NCBI GenBank assembly: GCA_902793315.1
Contig: CADBCT010000002.1
Coordinates: 2,973-66,972, forward strand
Length of the DNA: 64,000 bases
From: an uncultured Erysipelotrichaceae bacterium
GTDB lineage: Bacteria > Bacillota_I > Bacilli_A > RF39 > UBA660
Direction of reading: 5' to 3'
In this document: piece after piece, positions 7,729-59,916 of the stretch
Position numbering within the stretch: the stretch's first letter is position 1
How the letters are laid out: every line of letters begins with the position of its first letter
Notes under the pieces: generated by a model
Databases searched by the model: none
The model's input: the letters and a program-made list of their open reading frames with translations, nothing else
What the model was told of the DNA's origin: nothing
Position numbers and translations under genes: made by a program

Positions 7729-7777
7729 ATTTATCACCTACTATTATAAATATACAATAAAAATCAATTAAGATAAA

Positions 7778-13301: not shown

Positions 13302-13514
13302 AATACTCACCTCTTTTTCAGTTTATCATATAAATGTAAAGTTGTGATATATCAATGTATATTTTACATAAAAATAATTGTAAATTTACATAGACACTAC
13401 ACATGTAATTATAAACTTTACAATATCGAATCGACAAATATCTTACTTAATAAAATAATAACATACATTTCTAAAATATGATATATTTTTTTGAAAATTT
13501 TCATAAAATTTATC

Positions 13515-14801
13515 ATGAAAAAAACGTTTGTTTGTTCTGCTCTTATTTTAATCATTGGTGGATTCATTACGAAAGTACTTGGTATGATTATAAAAGTCTC
13601 TACAACTAGAATTATTGGTACTGAAGGTATCAGTTTATATATGTTAATTATACCTACTTTTAATCTCTTAATTAGTCTTTCACAGTTTGGTATGCCAGTT
13701 GCTTTAGCTAAACTTATTTCTGAAGAAAATAAAAGTACTAAAAAACTATTTTTTACTAATTTACCAATAATTATTTTAATTAATTTATGCTTAATTATCT
13801 TAGTATTTAGTACTGCTCCATTTATTAGTAATAATTTACTACATAATAGTGCTAGTGAAATATGTTTAAAGTCAATTGCTTTTGTTATTCCATTTACTAC
13901 TATTTCTAGTATTTGTAGAAGTTATTTTTTTGGTAGACAAAAAATGATTCCTCATGTTATTTCAAATATCACTGAAAGTCTATTTCGCTTACTTATTATC
14001 ATAGTATTATTACCCAAATTATTAATCTATTCAGTAAAATATCAAGTCTTATTTTTAATACTATTAAATATAATTAGCGAAGTTCTTTCAACAATTATTT
14101 TAATTTTCTTTTTACCTAAAAATATTATTATTACCAAAAATGATTTATTACCCAACAAACAGTATTTAAAAGATAGTTTATCTATCAGTATTCCAAATAC
14201 TTTAAGTAGATTAATAGTTAGCATTGCTTATTTCTTTGAACCTATTATTTTAATTAGTTCATTAAAGAAAAACTATTCTCTTAATTATATTACTACTCAA
14301 TATGGAATACTTAATGGGTATGTTCTTCCGCTAATCTTATTGCCTTCCTTTTTTACGATTGCTATATCACAAGCACTATTACCAGTTATTTCTAATGCCT
14401 ACTCAAACAATAATCTTAAAATTGTAAAAAGCAAATTATATGAAGCGATAACATTATCCCTAATAATTGGTATACCTACTACTATTGTTATAATGTTAAA
14501 GCCTAGCCTTTTATTATTTCTACTCTATCATACTACTGAAGGGGTAATTTATTTAAAACTCTTAGCTCCAATATTTCTACTTCACTATCTTCAAGCTCCC
14601 TTAATTACTATTTTAGATGCTATTGGTAAAAGTAAATATAATTTAACTGCTAATATTATTAGTACAATTATTAGAATTAGTTCTTTAATAGTATTAAGTA
14701 CTTTCAAAATAGGTATTTATTCTCTATTAATATCTATTATCATTAATATATTTATCACTACAATCTATTTAATTTTCAAAATAAAAAGACAATTAAAATA
14801 A
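13515..14801 (+). CDS. MOP-superfamily flippase (polysaccharide biosynthesis / SpoVB / MurJ-like)
   Basis: About 430 aa and polytopic, with roughly 12-14 hydrophobic helices. The N-terminus ALILIIGGFITKVLGMIIKVSTTRIIGTEGISLY is typical of SpoVB/MurJ-type proteins. The start is uncertain (ATG 13515 versus TTG 13491). Confidence 0.7.
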   Translation: MKKTFVCSALILIIGGFITKVLGMIIKVSTTRIIGTEGISLYMLIIPTFNLLISLSQFGMPVALAKLISEENKSTKKLFFTNLPIIILINLCLIILVFSTAPFISNNLLHNSASEICLKSIAFVIPFTTISSICRSYFFGRQKMIPHVISNITESLFRLLIIIVLLPKLLIYSVKYQVLFLILLNIISEVLSTIILIFFLPKNIIITKNDLLPNKQYLKDSLSISIPNTLSRLIVSIAYFFEPIILISSLKKNYSLNYITTQYGILNGYVLPLILLPSFFTIAISQALLPVISNAYSNNNLKIVKSKLYEAITLSLIIGIPTTIVIMLKPSLLLFLLYHTTEGVIYLKLLAPIFLLHYLQAPLITILDAIGKSKYNLTANIISTIIRISSLIVLSTFKIGIYSLLISIIINIFITTIYLIFKIKRQLK

Positions 14802-18761: not shown

Positions 18762-18928
18762 GCTTTCCTCCTTAATATATTTATATTTAACTAAGCAAAA
18801 AAGCTACATTTACATGTAGTAGTATCCTTAAGATATAGCCTAAACGTCTCTTCAAATATAACACAAGTATTTTTACTAAACAAGTATTATTTTAATTATT
18901 TGACAAAAAAAGAGTATTATTTACTCTT

Positions 18929-19612
18929 TTATATAATTGAAAGTATTACACCTAATAGTAAGATTCCTAAAACAATATATGAAGTTTTACTAATTGTTAT
19001 TTTTTTAATGTCTTTAAATCTATAATCTTCTTTTTTATAATCTTTTACATCAACTATTTCAAAGTATTTACTTTTCTTTTTAGTTAAATCTTCACTTGAA
19101 ATAAGTACAAATTGATCTGGTTCTCCTGATTCACTATAGATAACATCTTTATCTAATTTACTTATATAAATAAACATTACTAAATCCATACAAGCTCCAA
19201 CTAAGTTAACTATTGATAAAAACATTAAATATGGAAGATTAAATATATAACTTATTATATATGTAATAACACCTATTACTACAAATGGCATCTGTAATGA
19301 AATCAAGATATTCTTTTTAGTTAGTTCTTGATATGCCATACAATACAAGATTCCTTTTTCTAAACAAATACCATAAGCAATATTTTTTCTTTTAGTACCA
19401 CCTATTAAATAGCCTATTCCATGAAGAAATTCATGTAAACATAAATATAGTATTAAAGTGATTAGTAATATCCAGAAATTTCCTGAGATGTGAAAATCAG
19501 CTTTAATCAAGATAGAAAATAATATTAATAATACTAATATTACAGTACCTAGAATGTTAGCTGGCACTAATTTCATCTTATAAACATAAGCTTTTTTAGT
19601 TGCTGTACTCAT
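18929..19612 (-). CDS. Polytopic membrane protein with HExxH (DUF3267-like putative zincin)
   Basis: LHEFLHGIGY motif inside a multi-TM protein. It overlaps the upstream gene by 17 nt. Confidence 0.55.
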   Translation of the reverse strand: MSTATKKAYVYKMKLVPANILGTVILVLLILFSILIKADFHISGNFWILLITLILYLCLHEFLHGIGYLIGGTKRKNIAYGICLEKGILYCMAYQELTKKNILISLQMPFVVIGVITYIISYIFNLPYLMFLSIVNLVGACMDLVMFIYISKLDKDVIYSESGEPDQFVLISSEDLTKKKSKYFEIVDVKDYKKEDYRFKDIKKITISKTSYIVLGILLLGVILSII

Positions 19613-25984: not shown

Positions 25985-26752
25985 CTAAAGTAGTTTTATA
26001 AATTCTATTATAGTTGGAACATTTATACCTGTAAAGTAAATAAAAGTTAAACTAATTAATAAAAATGGTCCAAATGGAACTAAACGTTCATGTTTTTTTA
26101 ATAATAGAAATAATGATACTGGTAAAGCCAATAGACTTCCTAAAAAGATTGCCATTAAACCAAGTAAAGGATGAAGAATAATGCCAAAGACAAACATCAT
26201 CTTAATATCTCCTCCACCTAATGTTTCTTTTTTAAACATCATATTTCCTAGTAACATTATTGCATACATAATAGCAAATAATATTGCTCCTGATAAAATA
26301 CATAATAAAGCATTAACTGCTCCTACTTGTAAAGTTTTAATTATTATAAAATAACAACCAAAGAATACTAATACTTCATCAGGAATAACATAATAAGATA
26401 AATCAGATACTGATATAATTGATAACATTGAAACTATTCCTAAAGCAATTAATAGTTCATATGAAAAGCCATATACATAAAAACCTAAAGCAAATAATAC
26501 ACCTGTAAAAAACTCCATATATGATGATAAAGCATCTATTTTACCTTTACAATATCTGCATCTACCTCGTAGTAATAAGAAAGAAATTATTGGTACCATA
26601 TCAAGTAAACTTAGACGATGATGACATTTATCACAATAACTTCTAGAGTTCATAAAATTTTCATGATTAGGTAATCTTGAACCTACTACAGTAAAGAATG
26701 AACCCATTAATAAACCTAAAATAAAAAAGATAATTAGATATAAAGTTTGCAT
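25985..26752 (-). CDS. pilD: Prepilin peptidase (A24 family, PilD/ComC)
   Basis: Zn-finger CDKCHH...CRYC, catalytic Asp contexts SDLSYYVIPDE and GGGDIKMM, about 8 TM. Confidence 0.9.
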   Translation of the reverse strand: MQTLYLIIFFILGLLMGSFFTVVGSRLPNHENFMNSRSYCDKCHHRLSLLDMVPIISFLLLRGRCRYCKGKIDALSSYMEFFTGVLFALGFYVYGFSYELLIALGIVSMLSIISVSDLSYYVIPDEVLVFFGCYFIIIKTLQVGAVNALLCILSGAILFAIMYAIMLLGNMMFKKETLGGGDIKMMFVFGIILHPLLGLMAIFLGSLLALPVSLFLLLKKHERLVPFGPFLLISLTFIYFTGINVPTIIEFIKLL

Positions 26753-26768
26753 ATAAATAATTACCTCC

Positions 26769-28196
26769 TTATTTAATCTGACTATACATAGAGAACATCG
26801 GTTGAATAATCGAAATTAAGATAATACCAACAACTACTGCTAAGAAAACGATCATAATCGGTTCTACTAAACTTTTCATCTGATCAATAACGTTTTTATG
26901 TAACATTTGGAAGTGTGAAGCAACCTTTTCCATCATAGCACCTAATTGACCAGTAGTTTCACCAGTAACAATCATTTCATATGCTACAACTGGTACTGCC
27001 CATTGTCCTCTAAATGCTGAAGATATAGAATCTCCACGACCTAAGTTTTCAAGAGTTTGATTAATAATCTTCGTAAAAACTTCATTATTAGTAATTTTAG
27101 ATAGAATTTCCATACTATCAGTAATAAATACTCCATGATTTAATAATGAAGCAAATGTTTTAGTAAAGTTAGCAACTTCATTGTAAATAATTACATCTTT
27201 AACTACTGGAAGATGCATTAACAAAATTTGTACTTTTTCTCTGAATGGTTGTACTTTTTTATATAATTGCATGAATGTAACAACTACTACCACTACACTG
27301 ATTAAGAGAATATACCATTTATTTTTAATAAAATCACTTGTAGCGATAATTGCTTTAGTTAATGCTGGTAACTCAGCTCCATTACTTTCAAACATAGCTG
27401 TAAATTGAGGAACCAAGTATGTAAGCATAAATATTAAAACTCCAAAGGCAATAGTCAATACGACTGCCGGATATGTCATGGCTGACTTCATTTGCTTACG
27501 AGTTTGATCCATTGAAGTATAATATTCAGACATATCATCTAAAATTGATGGCAAATCACCTGTCATTTCAGCTGTCTTTACCATATTTATTAATAATTTA
27601 GGGAATATCTTATCTTGCATCATCATGGCTTCAGATAAACTTTCACCTTTTAATAACTGATAAACTAATTCACTAAAGCTCTTTTTAAGCTTTGGTTTAG
27701 TTGATTGTTTGGCTAAAATTCTAACTGAATCAGCAAGTGGAATACCAGATTTGATATATGTAGATAACTGAGTTAATGAGAATGATAAATCACTGGCTCC
27801 TATTGGAGAATTCATTCCAATATCAATATCGCCTTTACCTCTTTTTCTAACTTCTAATACTTGATATTCTTGAGAAATTAAGAAATTTCTAACATCTTCT
27901 TCACTCTCAGCATCAAAACTACCAGTTTCTTTTTTACCTACACCATTTATAATTTTATACTTATAGCTCTCTAAAGGTCTTCTTATTTTAGTTCTTTCGC
28001 CCATTTGAGAAACTGTTTCTTGTGGCATAGCAGGTGTTTGATTATCAGCAGTTTGTACATTATTATCTTGAGCAGTTGCTACAGAATTGTCTTGGGTTGC
28101 CTGTTGTTGTGCTACTGCTGCAGTTGCATTTGCTGGTGCTGCTTGTTGTTGTGCTTCTGCTTCATTAGTTTTAGCTTTTTTCTTTTTTCCTAGCAT
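26769..28196 (-). CDS. pilC: Type IV pilus / T2SS platform protein (GspF/PilC/ComGB family) with a Q/A-rich N-terminal extension
   Basis: Two T2SSF repeats, each followed by a TM segment. The first ~60 aa are low complexity (AEAQQQAAPANATAAVAQQQATQDN...). Confidence 0.9.
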   Translation of the reverse strand: MLGKKKKAKTNEAEAQQQAAPANATAAVAQQQATQDNSVATAQDNNVQTADNQTPAMPQETVSQMGERTKIRRPLESYKYKIINGVGKKETGSFDAESEEDVRNFLISQEYQVLEVRKRGKGDIDIGMNSPIGASDLSFSLTQLSTYIKSGIPLADSVRILAKQSTKPKLKKSFSELVYQLLKGESLSEAMMMQDKIFPKLLINMVKTAEMTGDLPSILDDMSEYYTSMDQTRKQMKSAMTYPAVVLTIAFGVLIFMLTYLVPQFTAMFESNGAELPALTKAIIATSDFIKNKWYILLISVVVVVVTFMQLYKKVQPFREKVQILLMHLPVVKDVIIYNEVANFTKTFASLLNHGVFITDSMEILSKITNNEVFTKIINQTLENLGRGDSISSAFRGQWAVPVVAYEMIVTGETTGQLGAMMEKVASHFQMLHKNVIDQMKSLVEPIMIVFLAVVVGIILISIIQPMFSMYSQIK

Positions 28197-28316
28197 ACAA
28201 ACTACCTTCCTCTTTATCTTTTCATACTAATATCATTCTAACATAACTTTTTCAATTTTAAAACACTATTTTAAACTTTTTGTTCATTTGTCATATATTG
28301 TATTAGAGGTGATACT

Positions 28317-28568
28317 ATTTATCCTTATCAAAACCCTAGTATTTTAGCTAATGCTGTTAATATTTTAAAAGGAATAAAATGGGGAACATTACTAGATGGT
28401 ACTAGTAAAACATTAGGAGTAATAAACCAAGCAATTCCGATTGTATATCAAGTAAAACCCTTTGTTAATAATGCTAAAACTATATTTAAAATAGCCAATG
28501 AAATAAATACACCTACTGAAGAACAAAAAGAGACAAGTGCCAATACAAGTCCCATCTTTTACATATAA
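28317..28568 (+). CDS. VrrA/YqfQ-like small protein, no canonical start codon (possible ATT start)
   Basis: The frame is open from 28275 to 28568 with no in-frame ATG, GTG or TTG. A strong SD GAGGTGA (28306..28312) lies 4 nt before the ATT at 28317. The product IYPYQNPSILANAVNILKGIKWGTLLDGTSKTLGVINQAIPIVYQVKPFVNNAKTIFKI resembles the conserved core of Bacillus YqfQ. Confidence 0.4.
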   Translation: MYPYQNPSILANAVNILKGIKWGTLLDGTSKTLGVINQAIPIVYQVKPFVNNAKTIFKIANEINTPTEEQKETSANTSPIFYI

Positions 28569-28583
28569 AAAGTAGTTATAAAA

Positions 28584-30736
<2,153 letters not shown>

Positions 30737-30798
30737 AGAAATCACTCCTAAGCGTTCTAATTATATCAAAAAAAGATTAGTTTTTAAATACTAATCTC

Positions 30799-31509
30799 TT
30801 AAATACCATAGTTTTTCTTAATATATTTCTTACTATTCTTTTCATTAATTTTATCATCATGTCTACTAGCACCTGAAGCAATAGCCATTTTTGAAGTAGT
30901 AACAACTTCATCATATAGTTTAACAATATCTTCAGCAGACATTTCATTAAAATTCATATCTTGAATAGTAGCACATAAATTAACTGCATCATTTAATGCT
31001 TTAGATTCAATAGTGAATCCTTCGATACGGTAATCATCTTTTACTCCAGCAACACCTTTAGGTGTTAAGAATAATGTATCTTCATTATAATCAGCTGCTG
31101 GTGTTAAAGTAACTGTATTAATAGGTGCTTTTTCTTCATCAGCAATAGCTCCTTTAACAGATCCTAATAATAATTCTTCTGCAGTATCTTTAAAGTTATC
31201 TCTTAACCAGTTCAAAGTTTCATTATATGAATCTTCTTCTCCTGAACTTTTATAATACTCTAAATACATAATTCTTTTTCTAAACTCAGCATCTTTTCCA
31301 ACAATATTAATAGTACCTTCATCTAATGATTCATCAAGTACTGTAATATCTTGGATATCTTCATCTTCTAATAATTCAGCAATAGGAGTAGTTTTTAATT
31401 CATAATCGCTATTATCTTTAGCTAGTATTGTACCTGCCTTAGATCCAGCAAATATAAATCCAGCTAATAATACGATACTTGTTATTTTATTAATATTAAT
31501 TTTTTTCAT
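30799..31509 (-). CDS. Hypothetical secreted protein
   Basis: ATG at 31509 is preceded by AGAGGGGGA. The signal peptide is MKKININKITSIVLLAGFIFAGSKA. It is inserted between ruvB and queA. Confidence 0.5.
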   Translation of the reverse strand: MKKININKITSIVLLAGFIFAGSKAGTILAKDNSDYELKTTPIAELLEDEDIQDITVLDESLDEGTINIVGKDAEFRKRIMYLEYYKSSGEEDSYNETLNWLRDNFKDTAEELLLGSVKGAIADEEKAPINTVTLTPAADYNEDTLFLTPKGVAGVKDDYRIEGFTIESKALNDAVNLCATIQDMNFNEMSAEDIVKLYDEVVTTSKMAIASGASRHDDKINEKNSKKYIKKNYGI

Positions 31510-31595
31510 ATTATCCCCCTCTTTCAAATGCGTATACATTATACCACAAATGTTGGAAAAAGTCAATTTTTACCAATAAAAAAGCACTTTAAGTG

Positions 31596-32633
31596 CTATT
31601 CTAAATCAAGAGCTGTTTGTTCTCCTTTAGCTTTCTTTTTAGTATTAGGAATACCTAATATTTCATAAGCTTTATCGGTAACAACACGACCTCGAGATGT
31701 TCTTTTTAATAATCCCATTTGTAATAAATATGGTTCATAAACGTCTTCTATTGTAGTTACTTCTTCTCCAATAGAACTACTTATTGCATCAATTCCTACT
31801 GGTCCACCATTAAACTTAGTTATAATAGCAGTTAATAGATCTCTATCAGTATTATCTAATCCCATTGAATCTACTTTTAATCTATCAAGAGCTTTTTTAG
31901 TAATAGCTAAATCAATATTACCATCACCTTCTACCATAGCAAAGTCTCTTACTCTTTTAAATAATCGATTAGCAATTCTAGGTGTACCACGACTTCTCAT
32001 AGCAAGTTCTACCGCAGCCTCCTCATCAATAGTCATATCAAGTACTCTAGAGGTTCTTTTAACAATATCAGTAAGCTCTTCTACTGTATAGAATTGTAGT
32101 TTATTAATAATACCAAATCTATCTCTTAAAGGAGAAGATAAATCACCTGCACGAGTAGTTGCTCCTACTAAGGTAAATGGAGGTAAATCTATCTTTATAT
32201 TACGACTATTCCCTTCACTACCTACAATGATATCTAATGAAAAATCTTCCATTGCTGGATATAGTATTTCTTCTATATATCTAGGCATACGATGTATTTC
32301 ATCAATGAATAAGACATCACCTGGTTCAAGTGATGAAAGAATAGCAGCTAAATCTCCTGTTTTTTCAATACTAGGTCCACTAGCTGTTTTAATATTAGTA
32401 CCCAACTCATGAGCAATAATAAAAGCTAATGTAGTTTTACCAAGTCCTGGAGGACCATATAATAAAACATGATCAAGAGCTTCTTTACGCATTTTAGCTG
32501 CTTCAACGAAAACTTTAATATTTTCTTTGACATCAGTTTGTCCAATATATTCATCAATGGTTTCTGGACGAATTGTATTATCAATTAAATTATCATCTTC
32601 TAATTCATAATTAGTTATAACACTCTCTTCCAT
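31596..32633 (-). CDS. ruvB: Holliday junction branch migration helicase RuvB
   Basis: Walker [10 protein letters not shown], Walker B LFIDEIHR, sensor GATTRAG. Confidence 0.95.
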
Positions 32634-32642
32634 ATAACCCTC

Positions 32643-33206
32643 CTATTTTAATAATAATCTTAATGCTTCTTTTACTTGTTCTTCAATAGTTAAAGTATTA
32701 TCAACTTTACCAAGTACTGGTTTAATTTCTTTATCTTTATAACCTAATCCTATTAATACTTCATATAATTCATTTTGATTATCTACTTCAGTAGTACTAA
32801 TACCTTCACTAGTTGTTTCCATTTTACCTTTTAAATCTAATACTATTTGACGAGCAAGTTTTTCTCCAATCTTAGGAAATTTCTTTAAATATAAGATGTT
32901 TTCACGATTAATCGCATCAATAATACCATCTACTGATCCAACAGCTAAGATAGGTAAAGTCATCTTACAACCTAGTCCTTTAACACTAATAAGTTTTAAG
33001 AACAATTCTTTTTCTTCTAATAATTTAAATCCATATAATAAATGAGCATCTTCTGATATTTGTTGATAAACATATACTTTGTATTCTACTCCGGGTTCAA
33101 ATGAATATGGATTAGATACATATATTAAATATCCCACTCCGTTATTATCTAAAACTATTGCATTATTCTTAATATCTGTAACTACACCTTTAATATAATC
33201 AAACAT
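32643..33206 (-). CDS. ruvA: Holliday junction DNA-binding protein RuvA
   Basis: MFDYIKGVV... OB domain, HhH pair (VKGLGCKMTLPIL, FPKIGEKLARQIVLDL), and a C-terminal RuvB-binding domain. Confidence 0.9.
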   Translation of the reverse strand: MFDYIKGVVTDIKNNAIVLDNNGVGYLIYVSNPYSFEPGVEYKVYVYQQISEDAHLLYGFKLLEEKELFLKLISVKGLGCKMTLPILAVGSVDGIIDAINRENILYLKKFPKIGEKLARQIVLDLKGKMETTSEGISTTEVDNQNELYEVLIGLGYKDKEIKPVLGKVDNTLTIEEQVKEALRLLLK

Positions 33207-33285
33207 CTTATCACCTACCAATTATTATAAAACAAAAAAGTTCTATAAGCAAATCGAACTAAAACAAAAAAAGAGTTTATGACTC

Positions 33286-47030: not shown

Positions 47031-48860
47031 TTATTTATGATATACACTGCCAGTTAATTCTTTAATAATACCATTATATTCATCAATACTTAAAGGCATT
47101 TCACTGAATAAAGCATTGTACATAGAATTTCCGTTTTCTAATAATCTATTAACTTTATTAATAGATACTAAATTACCATTAATATTATAAGTTCTTAAAC
47201 CATCACGATATTCATCTAAATTAATTGAATCTAAATCTACTTTATTATTCAATTCTACTTTATTAGGAATAAATTCCTCTAATTCTTCATCAGCTATATA
47301 AAATCTTTTAGTAAGTACTTTATCTAATTCATCTTTACTATCTATATGAGTTTCAAATGCTTTTAAAGCTTCTAATCTTAATAATTTATCACTATTAAGA
47401 ATATTTAAATCATTCTCTAAAAAACTCTCATAACCCAATTCAATTAATCTATCAATAATTAAAACCAAATTATTATTAGTTAAAAATTTATAATTACTAG
47501 TTGTTTTTAAAGAATTAAGTAAATTATAAGTATTTAGTATTTCTAAATTATCTTTTAATAAATTAGAATACATAAACATAATTCCAATTGATTCAAAGAA
47601 AATACTAGGATTAATATTATAACTATACAATACTTCTAAATTATTAGTATAAGCTTGATACTTAGAAGAATTTTTATAAAACAAATCATTATTTTTAATA
47701 ATAAATTCTAAACTCAAATAACCCTTATCAACAAATTCTTTGATTTGTAACACTTGTTTTAAATCACTATTTCTTAATACTTTAATTGTTTGATCAACAC
47801 TTAAATTAAACTTAGAAATAATTTTTAACATACTTTCTACATCTTCTAAGCTATTATTCATAATTCTTTCAATATCATGCAAACCATTAGTAATGCCATA
47901 ATCATGTAATAATGCTTGATATTTAAGTTTATTGTTCTTATTTAAATGTTGTAGTTCATTATTTAATTTTTCATAATACTTATTATTATGTTCATTAATT
48001 AATTCTAAAACAGCATATTTAATATTTAAATCTTTAATCTTACTAACTATTTCACGAGCATTAGTTACTTCATCAGTTGATAATCCTTTATCAAGTAATT
48101 CTAATGCAGTATCAATATTAAATAATTCTTTATTATTATTTCTAACAAATTGCTTTTCTTTTCTTTCTTCTTCATCAACAAATGTTCTTATTCTATTAAC
48201 ATCTTTAAAGAGTCTAGAAACATCATAATTGTCACGATAAACCTTTTTTAATAATAAACTCTTTTCTTTTTCCTTAAGTCTTAAATCATCTAGTTCGTTA
48301 GCAACATACTCTGCTTCACTTTTCATTGTTCGATATGCCATATAGGCAACTATTAATTGTAAGAAATTAGATTCTTGTTCTTTATAAAACTCAAAGTAAT
48401 TAGCCAAATCAATATCTTTACAGTTATCAACCTTTTTTATATCCTTGAGAATTTTAAAATATGATCTATCTTCTTCAATTAAACCAGATACACCAAGTGC
48501 TGCTTTAAAAATATTTTTTTCTTTTAAATAATTAATTATTTCATCAATGTTATCGGCAGCATCAATATTTATCGTCAATTGAATAAAGTCATGAAGATTG
48601 TCTATTTCACTAATTTCTAAAAAAAATCTAAATGATTCAAATCTATCATCTATTTCTTCAATACTCCATTTACTACCATTAAGATAGTATGCACATTTCA
48701 TGTATTCAAAAATATCAACATCAATAAAATCTTCTATTCTAGAAATATCATTATTTTCTAAATACTTTTTACAATAATCATAACGATAGTCTTTTTCATA
48801 TGGTCTAGTTAATTCTTCTTTTCTTATATCAACTAACTCAGTAATTCTTTCTCTAGTCAT
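47031..48860 (-). CDS. Hypothetical all-helical repeat protein (609 aa)
   Basis: Overlaps the upstream ORF by 8 nt, with SD AAGGTGA inside that gene. The C-terminal half shows about 30-35-aa helical repeats. The family is not recognised. Confidence 0.5.
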   Translation of the reverse strand: MTRERITELVDIRKEELTRPYEKDYRYDYCKKYLENNDISRIEDFIDVDIFEYMKCAYYLNGSKWSIEEIDDRFESFRFFLEISEIDNLHDFIQLTINIDAADNIDEIINYLKEKNIFKAALGVSGLIEEDRSYFKILKDIKKVDNCKDIDLANYFEFYKEQESNFLQLIVAYMAYRTMKSEAEYVANELDDLRLKEKEKSLLLKKVYRDNYDVSRLFKDVNRIRTFVDEEERKEKQFVRNNNKELFNIDTALELLDKGLSTDEVTNAREIVSKIKDLNIKYAVLELINEHNNKYYEKLNNELQHLNKNNKLKYQALLHDYGITNGLHDIERIMNNSLEDVESMLKIISKFNLSVDQTIKVLRNSDLKQVLQIKEFVDKGYLSLEFIIKNNDLFYKNSSKYQAYTNNLEVLYSYNINPSIFFESIGIMFMYSNLLKDNLEILNTYNLLNSLKTTSNYKFLTNNNLVLIIDRLIELGYESFLENDLNILNSDKLLRLEALKAFETHIDSKDELDKVLTKRFYIADEELEEFIPNKVELNNKVDLDSINLDEYRDGLRTYNINGNLVSINKVNRLLENGNSMYNALFSEMPLSIDEYNGIIKELTGSVYHK

Positions 48861-49806
48861 GATTATTCACCTTCTTTAATTCTACTTCAGCTTCTTTAGG
48901 ACTAATTAAGTTGAATAATTCTTCTACATATAAATCATTTAATTCCATAAATTCTTTATCTTTAATCTTTTCTTTTAATTTAGCTTCATTCTCTTTAAAA
49001 TGACTAACTTTTCTAGTTAAAGTATCTTTATATAATTTATCAGTATCAGTCTTTTTAACAAAGGCAGTAATCAAACCATATGTATTTTTATCTAACCTCG
49101 AAAATACTACTCTAGTTTTAAATCCTTTTACTTCTGAAATACCTGTTAAATGATAATTACTTGTAAAAGTTTTAACATTTTTAAAAGTACCATTAATAAT
49201 TGAATTAATTAACTCTAAGAAAGAATCATAATAGTCACTAGGAATATGTTCTAATTCATCAATTACACGAATATTACCGCTAATAGTAGGTATTAAGACA
49301 ATTCTATTTTTATGTTCTTGTACTTCTACTATTTCTTCTTTATTCATAAATTCTCTTATATATTTAATCTTTGTTTGTTCTTTGTTAATCAAATCTTTAC
49401 ATTCAATTAATTCTTCTTTAGATAAAGAATCATCTAATAAAAATTCATTAATTTCTTTTATTTCTTTATAAGATTCAGCTATTAAACGATTAATAATATC
49501 TTCGTAGTAATAATTATCTTTAGTGGGCAAAATATTAATAATATCTTCATAAGTAAAATTATCATCTAATGTTTTATAATTATCTAAATAAAATGATATT
49601 TCATCATTAAAATCATCATCTTCTAATACTATTTCTGATGATGCTACTAATTTTAAATCATTTGAATTATCAATACTTTCTTCAATAGTATCACTATGTA
49701 AATGTTTTTTTAGTCTTGATAGTTCTGATCTTTTTAAACGTGCTTCTTTACAACCTGATTCAATTACTTTAAGTAAATCATTAATATCTTTTTCCGTAAT
49801 AGCCAT
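48853..49806 (-). CDS. Hypothetical protein with a C-terminal RelE/Gp49(HigB)-like region
   Basis: ATG at 49806 has SD AGGGGTGA. The C-terminal GISEVKGFKTRVVFSRLDKNTYGLITAFVKKTDTDKLYKD resembles the (E)LR..yRi.f......i.l...F.KKt.k core of Gp49/HigB-type toxins. This is weak, by-eye evidence. Confidence 0.45.
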   Translation of the reverse strand: MAITEKDINDLLKVIESGCKEARLKRSELSRLKKHLHSDTIEESIDNSNDLKLVASSEIVLEDDDFNDEISFYLDNYKTLDDNFTYEDIINILPTKDNYYYEDIINRLIAESYKEIKEINEFLLDDSLSKEELIECKDLINKEQTKIKYIREFMNKEEIVEVQEHKNRIVLIPTISGNIRVIDELEHIPSDYYDSFLELINSIINGTFKNVKTFTSNYHLTGISEVKGFKTRVVFSRLDKNTYGLITAFVKKTDTDKLYKDTLTRKVSHFKENEAKLKEKIKDKEFMELNDLYVEELFNLISPKEAEVELKKVNNHD

Positions 49807-49830
49807 AATCTCACCCCTAAAACTGGACAT

Positions 49831-52979: not shown

Positions 52980-55267
52980 TACACATCACCTCCTAAAAAA
53001 GATAAATCATCTACTTTAGGATAATTAACTATATCACTATCATTCATATAGCAAATATCTTTGAATTTACAATACTCACAAGCCACATTCTTACCAGCAT
53101 AAGACTTAGGGTTAATAATAAAATTACTATTTAATATATCATCTAATTTAGTATTTATTTCATTCTTAGTATACTTAATTAATTTATATAAAGTATCATT
53201 ATCTATTACTTTAGAATAGCTACTAAATCCTTTATCAGTACTATATTTCATACTTTTAATATATTCACTATCTTTATAAGTTCTATCAAAACTTTCTAAA
53301 ATATCTAATTGATCAGTAGAATAACCATTTAAATAGTATTTTGTCTTTTCTTCTTTTTCTAATTTATTACTCCAAGTAGGATACTTAAATAAAATGTTTT
53401 GATAATATATTCCAGTGAATATTGGATTAGCAAATACTTTCCCATAATGAATTAAATACAAATAGACAGGTAACTGCATATGTAATCCATATTTCATTGG
53501 CTCTATATGGGTATCTATAGTACCAGTCTTATAATCTATTATTGAAAAGTATGTATCCTCAATATTTTTACGATACATTATTTTATCAATATAACCAATA
53601 AATTCTACACTTACTTTTTTATCTATTTTTACTTTTGCTTCTTGTTCATATAATTCATCATTATAAGTAGTATAGTCTTCTTGATCTTTTAAGACATTAA
53701 TAAATTCTAGTAATTCTTTTTTTATTCTTACTAGTAATAATTTTTCTTTTAAACTTAATTCTCTTGTTTCCAAATACTTATTGTATTCCTTTTCAAAATC
53801 AAAATTATATTTCTTATATAAAGATAGTATTTTATGGTACATTGAACCAATAAAAGCTTCAAAAGTATCTTCATAACTATCTACTTTTAAAACATATTTT
53901 AAATAGTATTTAAAAGCACATTCATTATAACTATTTAAAGATGTATATGACATTCTTAATGGTCTTATAATACTTCTTATATATAAATCATTATTAATAC
54001 CTGCAAATCCATTATTATAGGTATTATAGGGTATTTTATAATGGCTATTTAATAAGTCTAATAAATTATCTTTTTCATTATATAAGTTATATCTATCTAA
54101 CATCTCAGTTAAACGAATCTTATTATAAATATTAGAATACTGATAATTATCTTTTTCTTCTTTAATTACTTCTAAATCTAATTCTTTAATTAAACTAGAT
54201 GGAAAATATTCATTAAATGCAGATTCTAATTTATAAGATAAATATAAATTGGGTATTTTACTTAGTAAATATTTAATAATATCTTTTTCTCTATTATTCA
54301 AATACTTAGTAGAATACATATCTACTTCTTCTTTAATATTATCAGATATATAATCAATATCTTTTCTTACTTTAGGTAAGCTATCTTGATTAAATCCTAA
54401 GACAAAAACATATTCATCATCAAAAAATTCATTAGTAAATAAGTCTTTTATTTCTACTGCATTATTATACTTAATTGGTGGATAATAAGTATTTTTCAAT
54501 TTATCAATAAGTATCTTTTTATAAGTATCTGTGCTTTTATCTAAATCAGTTAAACTATTTATTACTGAGACTAGTTTCCTATTAGTTATTGAAGTATCTT
54601 CTATATTCAAAATACCTTCTAATAAATAATTATTAACTATTTTAGAACTATAAATAGAGTTTTTTAAATTTAAATTAATTGGTATTCTATAATAATTAAA
54701 TAGCTTTTTAATTGTATATAAGTATTCTTCACTAATATTAGTTAAATAAATCTTATTAATATCTACTCCGTTGTTTATTAAATCAATTATTTTTATACAG
54801 ATCCCATTAACTTCTTCTTCTAAAGTCTGATATTCAATTACTGGAACATTTATATTAGAATCTTTATAAGTAAATTTATAATTAAGTGCTTTTTCTTCAA
54901 ATAAATCCAAGTCATAATAACCTTTTACTTCGATATCAAAACTATCTAAATACTTTTTAAATGTAGGTGAATAACTTAATAGTTTATTGCTTATTAGATC
55001 AATTTTTATTTCTCTTAAATATTTTAATTTCTCATCTTTATAATCTTTATCTTCATTAATTACATATAAATTATTTAGGTATACTTTAACAACATCTACA
55101 TTTAAATTATATTTGTCCATTAAGTAGTAAAGAGCTTTATCATCATAACTAAAATAATACTTACTTAAGTATTCCCTTTTAGTCATATATTTGATATTAG
55201 TAAGTTCATTATTATTACCAAGTAATTGTAGTTTTGTATCATTAGGACAAATAATAAGTTTTTGCAT
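52979..55267 (-). CDS. addB: Helicase/nuclease subunit B (AddB/RexB type, no obvious Walker A)
   Basis: C-terminal nuclease FIGYIDKIMY...IIDYKTG. The Fe-S cluster cysteines (SYNECAFKYY and ACEYCKFKDIC) are typical of AddB. Its stop overlaps the addA start. Confidence 0.85.
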   Translation of the reverse strand: MQKLIICPNDTKLQLLGNNNELTNIKYMTKREYLSKYYFSYDDKALYYLMDKYNLNVDVVKVYLNNLYVINEDKDYKDEKLKYLREIKIDLISNKLLSYSPTFKKYLDSFDIEVKGYYDLDLFEEKALNYKFTYKDSNINVPVIEYQTLEEEVNGICIKIIDLINNGVDINKIYLTNISEEYLYTIKKLFNYYRIPINLNLKNSIYSSKIVNNYLLEGILNIEDTSITNRKLVSVINSLTDLDKSTDTYKKILIDKLKNTYYPPIKYNNAVEIKDLFTNEFFDDEYVFVLGFNQDSLPKVRKDIDYISDNIKEEVDMYSTKYLNNREKDIIKYLLSKIPNLYLSYKLESAFNEYFPSSLIKELDLEVIKEEKDNYQYSNIYNKIRLTEMLDRYNLYNEKDNLLDLLNSHYKIPYNTYNNGFAGINNDLYIRSIIRPLRMSYTSLNSYNECAFKYYLKYVLKVDSYEDTFEAFIGSMYHKILSLYKKYNFDFEKEYNKYLETRELSLKEKLLLVRIKKELLEFINVLKDQEDYTTYNDELYEQEAKVKIDKKVSVEFIGYIDKIMYRKNIEDTYFSIIDYKTGTIDTHIEPMKYGLHMQLPVYLYLIHYGKVFANPIFTGIYYQNILFKYPTWSNKLEKEEKTKYYLNGYSTDQLDILESFDRTYKDSEYIKSMKYSTDKGFSSYSKVIDNDTLYKLIKYTKNEINTKLDDILNSNFIINPKSYAGKNVACEYCKFKDICYMNDSDIVNYPKVDDLSFLGGDV

Positions 55268-55291
55268 AATACCACCATCTTTATTATAACA

Positions 55292-55328
55292 TTAAAAAAA
55301 AGAAAAGGAATATTCCTTTTCTTTTATT
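55292..55328 (-). terminator. Strong rho-independent terminator after the pilin gene
   Basis: Near-perfect palindrome AAAAGAAAAGGAATATTCCTTTTCTTTT followed by a run of T on the minus strand. Confidence 0.85.
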
Positions 55329-55893
55329 TATATAATGTTCTTGATTTAGAAGTACATCCAGTACTTGATGCTCCCCAACCAGTCCAAGAAGAACCGCAGG
55401 AATATCCGCAACAGCCACCATCTGTACATGTTCTATTTCCACAACAAGACTTTGAGCATTGTTTTGGTGCTGCTTTATATTTACAAGTTCGACATCCACT
55501 ACACACATTATGCCATTTCCATTGTTTACATGAACCGCTATAATACGCAACATCGGCACAATATTTCTTCAATTCACATTTATCACCACATTTGGAACAA
55601 TTTGCTCTTGTTTCATAATACCAACCACAACAACCACCATCTCTACAAACTTTATAACCGCAACATGGTTTACTACATGTATTAGGAACATTTCTCTTAA
55701 TATATTTATATTGTTTGTATGCCGTTACTTTTACAGTACAAGTCATATAGTTATTAACATTATCATAAACAGTATACTTAACAGTATCTTTTACTCCGGT
55801 TTCTTTATGATCACTTCCACCAGGACAATTTTTAACTCCTGATCCACCATTATCACCACAAGTATACTTAATTGTTTCCACCATTATCACCAC
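55324..55893 (-). CDS. Cys-rich C-terminal continuation of the giant pilin gene, out of frame because of the 34-bp duplication (unlikely to be an independent gene)
   Basis: Track ORF of 189 aa with no SD before its ATG. Its first residues ETIKYTCGDNGG repeat the last residues of the upstream ORF. It contains 25 Cys, 22 of them in the last 117 aa. Confidence 0.7.
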   Translation of the reverse strand: MVIMVETIKYTCGDNGGSGVKNCPGGSDHKETGVKDTVKYTVYDNVNNYMTCTVKVTAYKQYKYIKRNVPNTCSKPCCGYKVCRDGGCCGWYYETRANCSKCGDKCELKKYCADVAYYSGSCKQWKWHNVCSGCRTCKYKAAPKQCSKSCCGNRTCTDGGCCGYSCGSSWTGWGASSTGCTSKSRTLYK

Positions 55894-55910
55894 AAGTATA
55901 CTTAATTGTT
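55843..55910. repeat. Perfect 34-bp tandem duplication (2 x TCCACCATTATCACCACAAGTATACTTAATTGTT)
   Basis: Read directly from the sequence. Copy 1 is 55843..55876 and copy 2 is 55877..55910, identical and head-to-tail. 34 is not a multiple of 3. Confidence 0.97.
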
Positions 55911-58549
55911 ACACCACTAGTTTCATTAAGATTACTTTTAGATCCACTACACGTTGGTTTTTGTTTATCAACATAAACATTCATTGATGTCCTTGAACAT
56001 TCAGCAACATCCGCACCGGCTGGTGAGTTATCAGCTTTGTCTATAACTGTATAACTATTCTTCTGAGTCATAACTTTATATGTATGCTCATCAGCAGTAT
56101 AAGCAACACTTGAAATAATACCATTTACACAGCCACTTCCACCAGTATCATTACATGTCTTTTTAACAGTAGTTCCTGACTTACGCCATGAAGTAGATTC
56201 ACCAGTAATAGTACAAGTTGGAGAATTATGATCTATTCTAACTGCATTAGCTTTTGAACAATCAGTGACATTACCCGCTTTATCGCGAACCTTACCACCA
56301 GAATTATTATCAATAGCTCCAGCATTATCAGTATTTATATTTACTTCATAATCATGATAGAAAGTTAATTTCCAAGTTGGTAAATCCTTTAAGCAACCAC
56401 TTGCTTTAGTAGAACCATCGGTATCATAGTTACCACTACTATCAGTAGTTCCATCTTCTTGACAATCCGCTTTAACTCTAGCAATTTCATTAATTCCTAA
56501 CCAACCATACGAACTTTGCAAGTCTGTATAGTTAGACCAACTAGATGAACTTGTTTTTCTAGCAAGTTTTGATATCTTACACACTGGTTTTGTAAAATCA
56601 ACCCAAATTGGTTTTAATCCAGTATAAGCAGTACAATTACCTGCTTTATCACAGTTTTTAAACTCTACTTTATTCTTTCCTTCATAAGTAGCGTTAAATT
56701 CAACTTTTCCTACATCACCATATTCATCTTTATTACTGTTATATTCTTGAACAACGTGATATACAAATTTATCCCAATCAGATAATGTTACTTTAGAAGG
56801 TCCAGATGTATTATCTCTTTTATAATCATCATTTACTTTTGCAGTAACAGTTTTATTAATCCAATGTGTCGTACCAGGAACATAATTCTTAGTTCCATCA
56901 TCAACATATGTATAAGAGATGTCTGATGGTAATGGAGGTGCACTCTTATCGATATTAGCTTCAATAAATAACTCTGTAGTATTATTAGCAGCATCCTTTA
57001 CTGTTAATCTTCCTCTTCTTCTACCTTCATCTTTAAAATGAATGTAAATTGTTTTCGTTAAAACACCACAGTTAGAGTTTTCAGGTGCTGCGATTGTTTC
57101 TGACTTTACCTCATCCTTGTTAGATGTAGTATATGTCTCATATCCAGAACCAGGAGCCGTTGAAGTAATATATGATCCATTAGTTTCCCATGACCAACTC
57201 GCTAAATGAAGACTATCAGAAATTTGAATTTTATATACAACACCATTTGGATACCTATTATTATTCATCCAATCTGATACTAAATTATTATAGGCATTAT
57301 AACTAAGTGTTCCCGTTTCTGCGTTATCTTTAACTTCCATACCAGCTGTATAAGTACTAGTCTCATCACTAACATCACCATCATTATCTGTGTCAGCAAT
57401 ATTACCGTTAGCATCAGCTCTATATGCTCCTAATACCTTTATAGTTGGTCTGTTTTTATCAACATTTACCCTGACACGACAAGGGTTTGAATTATTTACT
57501 TCAATGTCACATAAACTATTCCCAGTTATCTCTGAAGAAGTCGATGCAAGGTTACTATTACGTGCATTATCTGAAACTTGAATATAAGCCCACTCAGCAT
57601 CTTCTTGATCATCATTTGGCCAAGATCTTGCGAATGTTGGTCTTAAACAACCACTACCCTTACCATCATCACAAGTTACTGTAACAATTCTAGAAGCATT
57701 ACCTATTCCTATCCAATCATTGGCACCACTTGCCGCACCGTCTACACCTTTACATGTAGGAGGAATAGTATCTTGATACGTACTAGCAGTATTACTAGCA
57801 TCAAATGTCCTTGTACTAGTTCCACCTTCAACATTTATAACAGTAACTTCAACCGAGAAATTAGTAACATGAGCTACATCCATATAGTCAGAAAGCTTTC
57901 TAGCAACTGATATTTCATTATAACCATTTCCGCTTAAAGTACCAGAATTATATACTTCTTGCATATATTTATTTTCAGTTGTTTCCGCAGAAATTATATA
58001 ACTATATCCTTCAATAGCTATCTTTTCGCCATCTTTTTCTCCTCCGCTAAGTTCCATATAAATAACAGCTTTATTAACATTATTCATAACATCAAAAGAG
58101 GATGAATTAGCATCATCAGAGAAGTGTACTTGAATGATAGGAGTTACAGCATCCGCTTCAGTATATTCATCATCACCACATAAAATAATTGATTCATATT
58201 CATATTTGGTTTTTGATACTTTACGAACCATAACAAAACTATTGGTCATACAATCATCACCAGAAGAGTTCTTAATATCATCTTTTATGTAATTCTTATC
58301 TCTTAAAGTTTGAGCATATACTCTGGTTTTTCCACCAATATCTCGAGGCAATTTATCGGTATTAGATTGCATATAACTTTGTGCTGCTTGTTTCAATGTT
58401 CTAGCATACTGTTCATCACTTTCTTTATGAGCTCGATTTATTAATCTTGTAACACTCGCTATTGCAACGACACTTAGTACTCCTAACACCACAATAACAC
58501 CAAGCAATTCTATCATCGTAAATCCTTTTCTATTAGACTTATTTATCAT
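55868..58549 (-). CDS. Giant modular type IV pilin-like protein (893-aa frame, truncated by the duplication)
   Basis: Class III signal MINKSNRKG|FTMIELLGVIVVLGVLSVVAIASV (Gly-1, Phe+1, Glu+5). A pilin head with a Cys100/Cys124 pair is followed by repeated modules with PTC...TCxDxGxSGC and VxDxAxN strands. SD AAGGTGA. Confidence 0.8.
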   Translation of the reverse strand: MINKSNRKGFTMIELLGVIVVLGVLSVVAIASVTRLINRAHKESDEQYARTLKQAAQSYMQSNTDKLPRDIGGKTRVYAQTLRDKNYIKDDIKNSSGDDCMTNSFVMVRKVSKTKYEYESIILCGDDEYTEADAVTPIIQVHFSDDANSSSFDVMNNVNKAVIYMELSGGEKDGEKIAIEGYSYIISAETTENKYMQEVYNSGTLSGNGYNEISVARKLSDYMDVAHVTNFSVEVTVINVEGGTSTRTFDASNTASTYQDTIPPTCKGVDGAASGANDWIGIGNASRIVTVTCDDGKGSGCLRPTFARSWPNDDQEDAEWAYIQVSDNARNSNLASTSSEITGNSLCDIEVNNSNPCRVRVNVDKNRPTIKVLGAYRADANGNIADTDNDGDVSDETSTYTAGMEVKDNAETGTLSYNAYNNLVSDWMNNNRYPNGVVYKIQISDSLHLASWSWETNGSYITSTAPGSGYETYTTSNKDEVKSETIAAPENSNCGVLTKTIYIHFKDEGRRRGRLTVKDAANNTTELFIEANIDKSAPPLPSDISYTYVDDGTKNYVPGTTHWINKTVTAKVNDDYKRDNTSGPSKVTLSDWDKFVYHVVQEYNSNKDEYGDVGKVEFNATYEGKNKVEFKNCDKAGNCTAYTGLKPIWVDFTKPVCKISKLARKTSSSSWSNYTDLQSSYGWLGINEIARVKADCQEDGTTDSSGNYDTDGSTKASGCLKDLPTWKLTFYHDYEVNINTDNAGAIDNNSGGKVRDKAGNVTDCSKANAVRIDHNSPTCTITGESTSWRKSGTTVKKTCNDTGGSGCVNGIISSVAYTADEHTYKVMTQKNSYTVIDKADNSPAGADVAECSRTSMNVYVDKQKPTCSGSKSNLNETSGVTIKYTCGDNGGNN

Positions 58550-58577
58550 TTAATCACCTTACTTTACTCTATTTATT

Positions 58578-58606
58578 ATTTTATAATATTCGTTATTTTA
58601 TGTCAA
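58578..58606 (-). promoter_or_regulatory. Sigma-A promoter of the giant pilin gene
   Basis: Minus strand has TTGACA (58606..58601), a 17-nt spacer, then TAAAAT (58583..58578), downstream of a T-rich tract that follows rpmF. Confidence 0.65.
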
Positions 58607-58630
58607 TTTTTTTGCAAAAAAAAACAGAAA

Positions 58631-58837
58631 TTACTCTGCTTCTTTTATTACTTCAACTTTTCCTTTATAAGATCCACATTTAGGACAAACTCTATGTGGC
58701 TTAATCATTTCTCCACAATTTGGACATTTAGTCATTCCTGGAATTTCTTTGGCATTATGACTTCTTCTCATTCTCTTTCTTGTTTTAGAAACTTTACGGA
58801 AAGGAACAGCAAACATTTGAATGTCTAATTTCATCAT
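58631..58837 (-). CDS. rpmF: 50S ribosomal protein L32 with a 9-aa N-terminal extension
   Basis: SD AAAGGAGTGA lies 7 nt before ATG ATG at 58837. The product is [27 protein letters not shown]...[18 protein letters not shown]. The canonical L32 begins at AVPFR. The track start at 58864 lies upstream of the SD, so that reading frame would contain the SD. Confidence 0.9.
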
Positions 58838-58844
58838 AGTATAA

Positions 58845-59324
58845 TCACTCCTTTTCAATATCATTTAACAATTCATTAAATGGATTATTCTCTTTTTTTA
58901 GCTCTTCTTCACTAATTAATCTCCATCCATTCCCTTGAAATTTACTATAATCTACTTCCTTCGTAAACTGTAAGGGAATCTCTAGTACAATATTTTCCCA
59001 CAAAAAAGCTAAAATATCAAGCATATTTTCATTTTTTAAGCTGTTTTCATCAATAAAATCACTATATTCAATCGTAAATGGATAGGTAACAGTATCTAAA
59101 GTAATTGAATCAGGAATTAACATTTCTCCCTTAATAGTACATTCTATATAATCATTCAATTCATTATTTTCATTTTCTTTTCTAGTTATTTGACCAACTA
59201 CATCAATTGAACTTAATTCTCTAATATCGGTATTTTCATAATAATCTTTAGTAAGCTCATAACTATTATTAATATCTATTACTTCAACAGTATTACTATG
59301 TAATAAACTTAAATCTATATCCAT
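58845..59324 (-). CDS. yceD: YceD/DUF177 family protein (23S rRNA accumulation protein)
   Basis: 159 aa, acidic, immediately upstream of rpmF as in most bacteria. The C-terminus is LEIPLQF... Confidence 0.75.
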
Positions 59325-59331
59325 AGAACAC

Positions 59332-59916
59332 CTACTTATTCATAGCAACCGATGTATTATTCTCAATTAATTGGATAATTCCATTATAATACATATCGCT
59401 ACCTACTGGTAACTTAGTATCTTGTTTAATCCAAATTCTAATTGAAATATTATCAGTATCCAAAGCTTCTATTTCTTTATCCAATAATATATTATCATTT
59501 TCAGTTAATTCATCTAAATTATATATTTCAGTTTCTTCCTTACTAACTTTTACTGAAATTCTAATATCTTCTTTAGGTATTAAAGATTCTTCTTCATATT
59601 CTTCGTTAGCTTCCTTATCATCTAATATCTTAATTTGATAATTAACATTTTCAGTTAAATTGTTTGTAACTGTTAATGTATAAGCTTTAGATGATAATCC
59701 TACAGAATCAGTTACAGGTGTAATTTTCTTAATAGTTAATTTATCTCCACTAGCTTCATGATAAGTAATATCTAAAGAAGCAGAATTAAAATCAATACTA
59801 CGATTTTTCTGAAACTTATTATATATATAGTAAGTAGATATTACAGCTAATAAAAGTATAAACGTAATATAAACAGTATTTTTAATTATTTCTTTTTTTC
59901 TATTATATGCGTACAT
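59332..59916 (-). CDS. Hypothetical membrane-anchored protein (beta-rich ectodomain)
   Basis: 194 aa with SD GAGAGGTG and one N-terminal TM (VYITFILLLAVISTYYIY). Confidence 0.5.
   Translation of the reverse strand: MYAYNRKKEIIKNTVYITFILLLAVISTYYIYNKFQKNRSIDFNSASLDITYHEASGDKLTIKKITPVTDSVGLSSKAYTLTVTNNLTENVNYQIKILDDKEANEEYEEESLIPKEDIRISVKVSKEETEIYNLDELTENDNILLDKEIEALDTDNISIRIWIKQDTKLPVGSDMYYNGIIQLIENNTSVAMNK

Follow-up and report, generated by a model that had tools for sequence, protein, structure and literature searches.

Modular pilins and the locus under study

A modular pilin is defined by an N-terminal pilin module followed by at least one domain that is not specific to pilus biology (PMC8179133). 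More than 1,200 such proteins, with 264 architectures, were gathered in the census of Raynaud et al. (2021), the extreme being a protein of 860 amino acids (aa) (PMC8179133), and it has been established that modular pilins act as pilus-displayed adhesins (PMC8179133; PMC10191384). The gene described here lies in a 64,000-nucleotide stretch of contig CADBCT010000002.1, assigned to an uncultured Erysipelotrichaceae bacterium; this whole stretch is called the window, and positions are counted within it unless the locus of a relative is named. Its product, 1,063 aa long once a frame break has been repaired, joins a pilin module to seven modelled beta-sandwich domains, with Big_3_2, Big_13 and Big_3_3 matched in members of its family, and ends in a Cys-rich knob. 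It is an unusually large and extreme modular pilin, and not a new kind of system; it is set apart by its size (115 kDa when mature), a long immunoglobulin-like (Ig-like) stalk, an allelic Cys-rich tip, and a locus remote from any machinery, with expansion into arrays in relatives. Taken as a whole, the protein is probably a modular type IV pilin adhesin of about 115 kDa, displayed by a type IV filament.

Several described systems resemble it in part. PilB and PilC of Streptococcus sanguinis, minor pilins of a monoderm type IV pilus, share the class III signal and small pilin module, followed by a short linker and non-pilus domains (PMC8179133), and for these proteins of monoderm Firmicutes an adhesive function of the grafted module has been shown (PMC8179133; PMC9934059). 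However, each of them bears one grafted module (von Willebrand factor A or lectin) and is encoded inside the pil locus, whereas the window protein carries seven Ig-like domains and a Cys-rich knob along its 1,063 aa, and its gene is far from the machinery. CofB, from the type IVb pilus of enterotoxigenic Escherichia coli, also places beta-rich domains after its pilin module and has a predicted location at the pilus tip (PMC8179133), but no sequence similarity to the window protein was detected beyond the N-terminus. An uncharacterised 860-residue protein of Candidatus Falkowbacteria, from an uncultured host with a small genome, likewise combines a prepilin N-terminus with many repeats, 12 in number (PMC8179133); these are IPR013211 repeats, in contrast to the Big_3-like Ig domains and Cys-rich end found here, and both the window protein and many members of its family (up to about 2,450 aa) are larger.

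PilX1 and PilX2 of Saccharibacteria are alike in being large minor pilins with accessory domains, in a reduced genome with pilus genes spread over several loci, and PilX2 is required for efficient host binding (PMC11623550). They differ in belonging to another phylum and in having C-terminal lectin-like or beta-propeller domains, with no long Ig-like stalk described. Finally, Marinomonas MpIBP and Aureispira GhpA, which are Ig-repeat fibrillar adhesins and not pilins, also extend a distal binding region on a string of beta-sandwich domains, although they use other export and anchoring routes and lack a pilin module, the likeness being that of a generic fold at low template-modelling score (TM-score), even though both count among the stronger Foldseek matches to the whole model.

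The original prediction, made from the DNA letters, held that a pilin of more than 100 kDa with several Ig-like modules and a Cys-rich terminal domain was not known to have been described. This stands insofar as the family is large and uncharacterised, with no characterised member and no curated family for the protein body. Nevertheless, its members are already in databases under generic names, and multi-domain modular pilins were established before, as the 860-aa example attests (PMC8179133).

The interrupted gene and its intact counterparts

The gene and its parts are distributed in the window as follows:

55324..58549, minus strand: giant modular prepilin gene, found as two open reading frames (ORFs; 893 aa + 189 aa)
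58523..58549, minus strand: leader peptide MINKSNRKG (residues 1-9), with Gly-1 at its end (PF07963, TIGR02532)
58142..58522, minus strand: predicted pilin module, residues 10-136 (Phe+1, Glu+5, hydrophobic alpha1N, long helix, beta head, C100/C124)
55958..58141, minus strand: six modelled beta-sandwich (Ig-like) domains D1-D6, residues 137-864 (AlphaFold2, Foldseek, and Pfam in family members)
55696..55957, minus strand: seventh modelled Ig-like domain D7, residues 865-940 of the repaired protein, split by the duplication (D6/D7 relation, AlphaFold2)
55843..55910, minus strand: 34-bp tandem duplication, unit AACAATTAAGTATACTTGTGGTGATAATGGTGGA on the coding strand (Tandem Repeats Finder: 2.0 copies, 100% match)
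55327..55695, minus strand: C-terminal domain rich in Cys (residues 941-1063), which in the window is not in the reading frame of the start codon
about 55400..55750 (~350 bp), minus strand: allelic cassette, in which DNA identity drops to 36-78% within sharp boundaries

As found, the gene is read in two minus-strand ORFs, 58549..55868 (893 aa) and 55893..55324 (189 aa), the second overlapping the end of the first in another frame. The 34-bp duplication shifts the reading frame after residue 891, and deletion of one copy fuses both ORFs into exactly 1,063 aa, with a junction (...GVTIKYTCGDNGGSGVKNCP...) that is read straight through in 36 of 36 full-length homologues. This repair is adopted because intact copies in other assemblies compare co-linearly. 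The repaired protein is 97% identical, gap-free, to P0041 (NCBI MBQ3297941.1) and 99-100% identical in every domain to P0046, both being intact 1,063-aa proteins of the same species, in the same 90% cluster as the window protein. The P0041 allele occurs on 41 contigs, one of 1,069,364 bp, and further intact alleles are on record, whereas the truncated 893-aa product is recorded for one 99,126-bp contig only. Three independent assemblies contain the intact gene; over 3,464 bp, only 11 mismatches and the 34-bp insertion set the window apart from them (99.7% identity otherwise), and all of them have the same synteny (Zn-peptidase, MYG1, a 194-aa ORF, yceD, rpmF, the gene, addB, addA).

The conserved 1,063-aa surface protein is genuine, and what the window holds is a broken copy of its gene. 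This copy is either a recent frameshift (loss-of-function) allele or an assembly error in which a contig overlap was written twice. It is very probable that the window gene is a pseudogene in the first sense, or that its interruption is an artefact (an unmerged 34-bp overlap) in the second, the window copy then giving no information on whether the strain has a functional protein of 1,063 aa. The two units match perfectly and lie directly in tandem, the 893-aa product appears on one contig as against 41 or more for the intact alleles, and the insertion is absent from the three otherwise near-identical assemblies. This has no bearing on the nature of the gene, intact and conserved elsewhere. Moreover, the product of the window copy, which is cut off after residue 891 and lacks the last domain and the Cys-rich knob, would retain the pilin module together with six domains and could nonetheless be produced. 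It should be added that the neighbouring addB is split (505 + 199 aa; L018, 6456..8744) in one assembly with an intact pilin gene, so that frameshifts, real or artefactual, occur elsewhere in the assemblies of this species.

N-terminal pilin module

The class III prepilin signal claimed from the DNA letters, MINKSNRKG|FTMIELLGVIVVLGVLSVVAIASV, was confirmed by profile searches, PF07963 scoring 25.8 bits (curated cut-off 21.2) and TIGR02532 21.9 bits (curated cut-off 16.3). Conservation was followed in an alignment of 37 sequences (A1) and in another of the 11 closest (A2). The N_methyl motif is matched in 35 of the 37 aligned family members; Phe+1 (F10) and Glu+5 (E14) are kept in at least 90% of A1 and in 11 of 11 sequences of A2, and Gly+14 reaches the same level in A1. 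The two Cys of the predicted pilin head are also present: C124 is invariant, and its partner C100 is either kept or, in a subgroup with a short loop, replaced by a nearby Cys. Modelling with AlphaFold2 from the family alignment gives this module a helix at 12-62 and a beta head with strands at 74-78, 105-110 and 116-121, at a predicted local distance difference test score (pLDDT) of 84.

Compared with solved pilins, the family profile matches Geobacter PilA (9e-11) and S. sanguinis PilE1 (5e-9) over some 60 residues, as well as the PilA major pilin of PDB entry 8tj2 (2e-7). Residues 6-126 can be aligned over their whole length with stand-alone pilins of metagenomic relatives, 150 and 159 aa long (30% identity and E 2e-13 with the 150-aa P0344), and this alignment takes in the terminal ...V.V.K...KY.Y....CG strand pair. 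From these results, the N-terminus is read as a whole pilin and not as a mere prepilin-like signal; thus, as far as sequence comparison can tell, the first 130 aa or so are a complete small pilin module.

The NCBI name of the intact allele, 'type II secretion system protein', raises another interpretation, namely a type II secretion pseudopilin or a pilin of the competence (Com) pilus. The N-terminal 120 aa do resemble GspG (residues 8-121, E 2e-7), ComGE and ComGC. However, the scores fall far below the curated equivalog cut-offs (GspG TIGR01710, 31.1 bits against 88.85; ComGE, 25.1 against 49; ComGC, 21.6 against 75), by which membership of GspG or of ComGC-GG is ruled out, and those families offer nothing comparable to 90% of the protein. 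In addition, the PilC encoded in the window is far nearer to PilC/GspF than to ComGB (306 against 148 bits), and the host is a monoderm member of the Bacilli with peptidoglycan genes, those for PBP, FtsW and MraY being present. No classical type II secretion system is known in monoderm Bacilli. A secretion or competence role is accordingly regarded as highly improbable.

Ig-like stalk

Past residue 136, the AlphaFold2 model consists of about seven beta-sandwich domains, with pLDDT mostly 75-94. D1-D3 form, together with the pilin module, the most conserved core of the family, the distal parts being variable; D6 resembles D7 in sequence (E 3e-8), the strands of the latter being modelled at 866-944. 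The repeat motifs listed in the original prediction were all found in the repaired protein (P-x-C at 264, 655, 777 and 865; C-x-D-x-G-x-SG at 293-301, 799 and 886; D-x-A-x-N at 327, 519, 634, 756 and 837), and the domain boundaries fall on recurring [VI]-D-x3-4-P ... P-x-C linkers and D-x-A-x-N strands.

The modules had been likened to both HYR (hyalin repeat) and Ig-like domains. Only the second likeness was sustained: among the 37 aligned members Pfam recognises Big_3_2 in 9, Big_13 in 4 and Big_3_3 in 3, whereas the HYR profile had no match at E<=1 in the window protein nor at E<=0.01 in the 37 members, and the HYR assignment is not supported. On the window protein itself, Pfam gave no match besides N_methyl. 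A Foldseek search of PDB with the whole model returned strings of Ig-like domains at TM-scores below 0.2 (MG domains of alpha-2-macroglobulin/CD109, the Aureispira grappling-hook protein GhpA, the Marinomonas ice adhesin MpIBP and an S-layer protein), matches that support the fold class only. Together with the family-level domain matches, the model shows the stalk as a string of bacterial Ig-like domains. The protein ends in ...GCTSKSRTLYK, with neither an LPXTG motif nor a C-terminal hydrophobic segment, and a sortase-anchored fibrillar adhesin of the LPXTG type is ruled out on this ground.

Cys-rich tip and allelic cassette

The Cys-rich terminal domain that had been claimed is indeed there, the last 123 aa holding 22 of the 44 Cys of the protein. 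In this domain CCGxxxCxDGGCCG[WY] occurs twice, and SRTLYK is its conserved end; no family was matched by it, and AlphaFold2 confidence is low in its middle (956-1014).

Members of the species-level cluster share 95-100% identity over residues 1-940. Their Cys-rich domain, in contrast, exists in two forms, since proteins of the 1,063-aa type are 87-100% identical to the window protein in this part and those of the 1,075-aa type 41%. When the window is compared with a 146-kb contig bearing the other allele, DNA identity is 95-100% over 10 kb, the cassette block excepted. Thus, the knob is the only part sharply different between otherwise near-identical strains and, because it alone is swapped, it would be the ligand-binding, or the immune- or phage-exposed, end of a rumen or gut adhesin. 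Silent copies of the cassette, in an arrangement like that of Neisseria pilS, were found neither in the window nor in the flanks of four same-species loci.

Pilus machinery in the window and in relatives

The original prediction placed pilC and pilD some 30 kb away from the giant gene, which was borne out by Pfam:

26769..28196, minus strand: pilC/gspF-type platform protein, 475 aa (PF00482 E 5e-51; TIGR02120 E 4e-91)
25985..26752, minus strand: pilD prepilin peptidase, 255 aa (PF06750 E 4e-28; PF01478 E 2e-12)

The exact PilD sequence carries the NCBI name prepilin peptidase. PilC is 70-100% identical in more than 120 clusters, and is therefore taken to be under strong constraint; its N-terminus has a Q/A/T-rich stretch of about 75 aa. 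Both genes belong to a housekeeping, operon-like string, as deduced from an order that is conserved in the lineage and free of any ATPase, ruvA-ruvB-(small ORF)-queA-tgt-pilC-pilD-dnaB/dnaD (window 25985..33221, minus strand; L014, L015). PilM, PilN and PilO, whose absence had also been claimed, were not found by Pfam and NCBIfam among the ten unassigned ORFs of the window.

In a relative, a 150-aa pilin adjoins a 672-aa PF00437 ATPase, and 19 rumen/gut metagenome loci contain ATPases 79-94% identical to the latter. A divergently oriented prepilin-like gene of 200-630 aa (NNKG|ITTIEV...) was seen in 13 of the 17 ATPase loci scanned, one locus having two prepilin-like genes (199 + 220 aa). Among the clusters of these ATPases, two have 90 and 62 members, with one sequence named PilB by its source and one located on a 1.13-Mb contig. 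Given that the core of a type 4 filament consists of pilins, peptidase, platform and ATPase (PMC10191384), the lineage has, by its predicted gene content, all four core components, scattered over several loci.

Some further observations concern these proteins. The PilB-type ATPases of relatives (L019, 10165..12183; L021-L036) have C-terminal tails of ~140-750 aa, Q/P/V-rich in P0365, the one examined; low-complexity extensions seem unusual on type IV pilus machinery proteins. In L014, the locus of a relative, a 736-aa modular pilin with Flg_new repeats (6119..8329) lies between queA and tgt, directly upstream of pilC-pilD, so that the lineage has several unrelated kinds of modular pilin. The same locus encodes (18438..19607) a 389-aa protein made of a CmpB-like multi-pass membrane domain, a prepilin motif (NNKG|FTLVELV) and a pilin head, in which the prepilin cleavage site is internal and not N-terminal.

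Family, hosts and gene arrays

A word-indexed search returned 39 relatives, nearly all of 900-1,090 aa, and an exhaustive profile search of 1.84 billion representatives gave 2,630 clusters (50% identity) at E<=1e-30. Among the best 150 profile matches, with lengths from 400 to 2,450 aa, almost all begin at the prepilin N-terminus. The named hosts are uncultured 'Bacilli' or 'Bacillales' known from metagenome-assembled genomes (sheep duodenum, goat jejunum, Hadza gut), sample labels point to rumen data sets, and the G+C content is 24-29%. Contigs of 1.07 and 1.13 Mb suggest that the host genomes are very small. Two papers on RF39/RFN20-type lineages make no mention of pili or competence.

In the window, the gene stands alone amid housekeeping genes, as the original prediction stated. 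This holds for the species but not for its relatives, in which tandem arrays of two or three giants are found with small membrane-anchored partners: 1,031 + 1,068 aa at the same rpmF-addB site, 1,036 + 1,003 + 1,064 aa, and 1,397 + 1,013 aa. Every array is accompanied by such N-terminally anchored proteins of 160-241 aa, one per giant gene (L001, 2549..3043 and 6256..6738; L002, 9151..9876 and 13246..13950; L012, 9481..9978), which are lineage-specific paralogue pairs, 35-41% identical and with no family match. No counterpart was found in the window; the 194-aa ORF at 59332..59916 was considered for this role and ruled out, being a different syntenic gene.

Proposed function and alternative readings

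Taking these data together, a mechanism can be proposed. PilD would cleave the prepilin after Gly9 and methylate Phe+1, and the mature protein would be held in the membrane by its hydrophobic alpha1N helix. The type IV filament machine, that is, PilC and a PilB-type ATPase encoded elsewhere together with small pilins, would then extract it, and the pilin module would be inserted, in low copy number and at or near the tip, into a filament made mainly of small pilin, a placement proposed by analogy with other modular minor pilins. The seven Ig-like domains may form a stalk of roughly 25-30 nm, which would hold the Cys-rich knob off the filament and present it for adhesion in the rumen or gut. 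Glu+5 is missing from the subunit that caps tip complexes (PMC10191384); as the giant has this residue, it is itself unlikely to be the cap.

A number of results weigh against this proposal. Pilus machinery was found within 10 kb in none of the 14 loci carrying a giant gene. As the original prediction had noted, no PilB-type ATPase was detected by a Walker A scan of the 64-kb window, nor was one in loci L001-L015, and a prepilin-motif scan revealed no second motif, and so no short pilin, in the window. Exact-sequence cluster look-ups listed no member on the contigs known to belong to the window species, and a search with the 159-aa pilin of L015 produced 26 matches, none attributable to this species. 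Foldseek with the isolated pilin-module model found no pilin in PDB (best E 0.35), possibly as an effect of the long helix, which would dominate the model. The presence of Glu+5, which the capping subunit lacks, makes the exact place proposed in the filament tentative, and both incorporation into a pilus and ligand binding by the knob are steps that we infer. Furthermore, no filament is known to take a subunit whose body measures ~100 kDa across the wall of a Gram-positive cell.

Part of this evidence would suit a protein that uses the pilin-like N-terminus for export and membrane anchoring only, cleaved by PilD but unpolymerised, and acting as a wall-spanning fibril adhesin in the manner of archaeal non-pilus proteins with class III signals. 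The genes never adjoin the machinery, neither short pilin nor ATPase accompanies the gene in the window, and multi-copy arrays occur with small membrane-anchored partners; besides, the modelled stalk of seven Ig-like domains would be long enough to cross the cell wall, and a protein with no LPXTG-type anchor needs some other anchoring. However, a mere anchor could dispense with the full pilin head, which is conserved, and the conservation of Phe+1, Glu+5 and Gly+14 (at least 90% of A1), as well as that of PilC, which is needed solely for assembly and is strongly conserved in the lineage, speak against it. We consider this alternative unlikely.

It might also be thought that the giant itself polymerises, as the principal subunit of a thick filament resembling a brush, with a core of pilin modules from which the Ig-like stalks radiate. 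Every feature of a polymerising pilin is present, Glu+5 included, no short pilin was found in the window, nor in the 10 kb around any family member, and paralogous arrays could supply several types of subunit. On the other hand, short pilins with the same head exist in relatives, some of them adjoining an ATPase, and the major pilins known so far are of far lesser size, a length of about 208 aa being already termed 'large' (PMC11046646). Packing bodies of 100 kDa at a rise of ~1 nm would also be sterically demanding. Because of the short pilins of relatives and this steric problem, a self-polymerising brush is less likely than display on a small-pilin filament, and we hold it to be very unlikely. 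Display of the giant as a modular pilin adhesin on such a filament is thus the reading that we prefer.

Expression signals and neighbouring genes

The signals that flank the gene are the following:

58578..58606, minus strand: putative sigma-70-like promoter TTGACA-17-TAAAAT, consensus match 11/12
58554..58560, minus strand: Shine-Dalgarno sequence AAGGTGA, 4 nt upstream of the ATG, as read from the sequence
55298..55325, minus strand: terminator-like hairpin AAAAGAAAAGGAATATTCCTTTTCTTTT followed by a T run, 12-bp stem

The promoter-like site, Shine-Dalgarno sequence and terminator-like palindrome that had been proposed are all present. TTGACA-17-TAAAAT is the best promoter-like site within 55100..58900; it is rated as only a plausible promoter of the giant pilin gene because, in this AT-rich DNA (26% G+C), promoter-like sites are no more numerous than in shuffled sequences.

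Other genes of the window may be mentioned. Directly downstream of addA, two overlapping genes (47031..49830, minus strand; 609 + 325 aa) have no family match and occupy the same place in L016. At 14807..16636 (minus strand), a 609-aa protein with an N-terminal signal-anchor and a Tyr/Asn/Thr-rich body, unmatched in Pfam and NCBIfam, is perhaps a further surface protein. At 757..4492 (minus strand), a 559-aa protein with xxxLxxG heptad repeats (TIGR03057) adjoins a 684-aa multi-pass membrane protein; by eye, this pair looks YhgE/Pip- or MMPL-like.

Implications

The many functions of type IV pili have usually been explained by small modules grafted on minor pilins. The present family takes this principle to an extreme, its pilin module bearing a stalk of about 100 kDa and an exchangeable tip. 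Metagenomes of livestock and of the human gut contain it in abundance, its hosts forming a scarcely known lineage with genomes of very small size. In annotation, the generic name 'type II secretion system protein' gives a wrong impression of such a family.

A wider scenario, quite doubtful at present, is that in these rumen and gut Bacilli of ~1.1 Mb a minimal and scattered filament machine (PilB, PilC, PilD and a few small pilins) mainly serves to display large, fast-diversifying, pilin-anchored stalk adhesins of 100-250 kDa with exchangeable Cys-rich tips. These could be the principal attachment organelles of bacteria that are perhaps epibiotic or host-attached, like Saccharibacteria, and the giants might even self-polymerise.

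If the giants are pilus-displayed adhesins, they would point to the molecules that fasten these uncultured bacteria to the substrate they grow on, whatever it is, and the allelic Cys-rich cassette would provide a direct handle on strain-level specificity. In that case, how a type IV machine handles so large a subunit through a Gram-positive wall would become a question in its own right.

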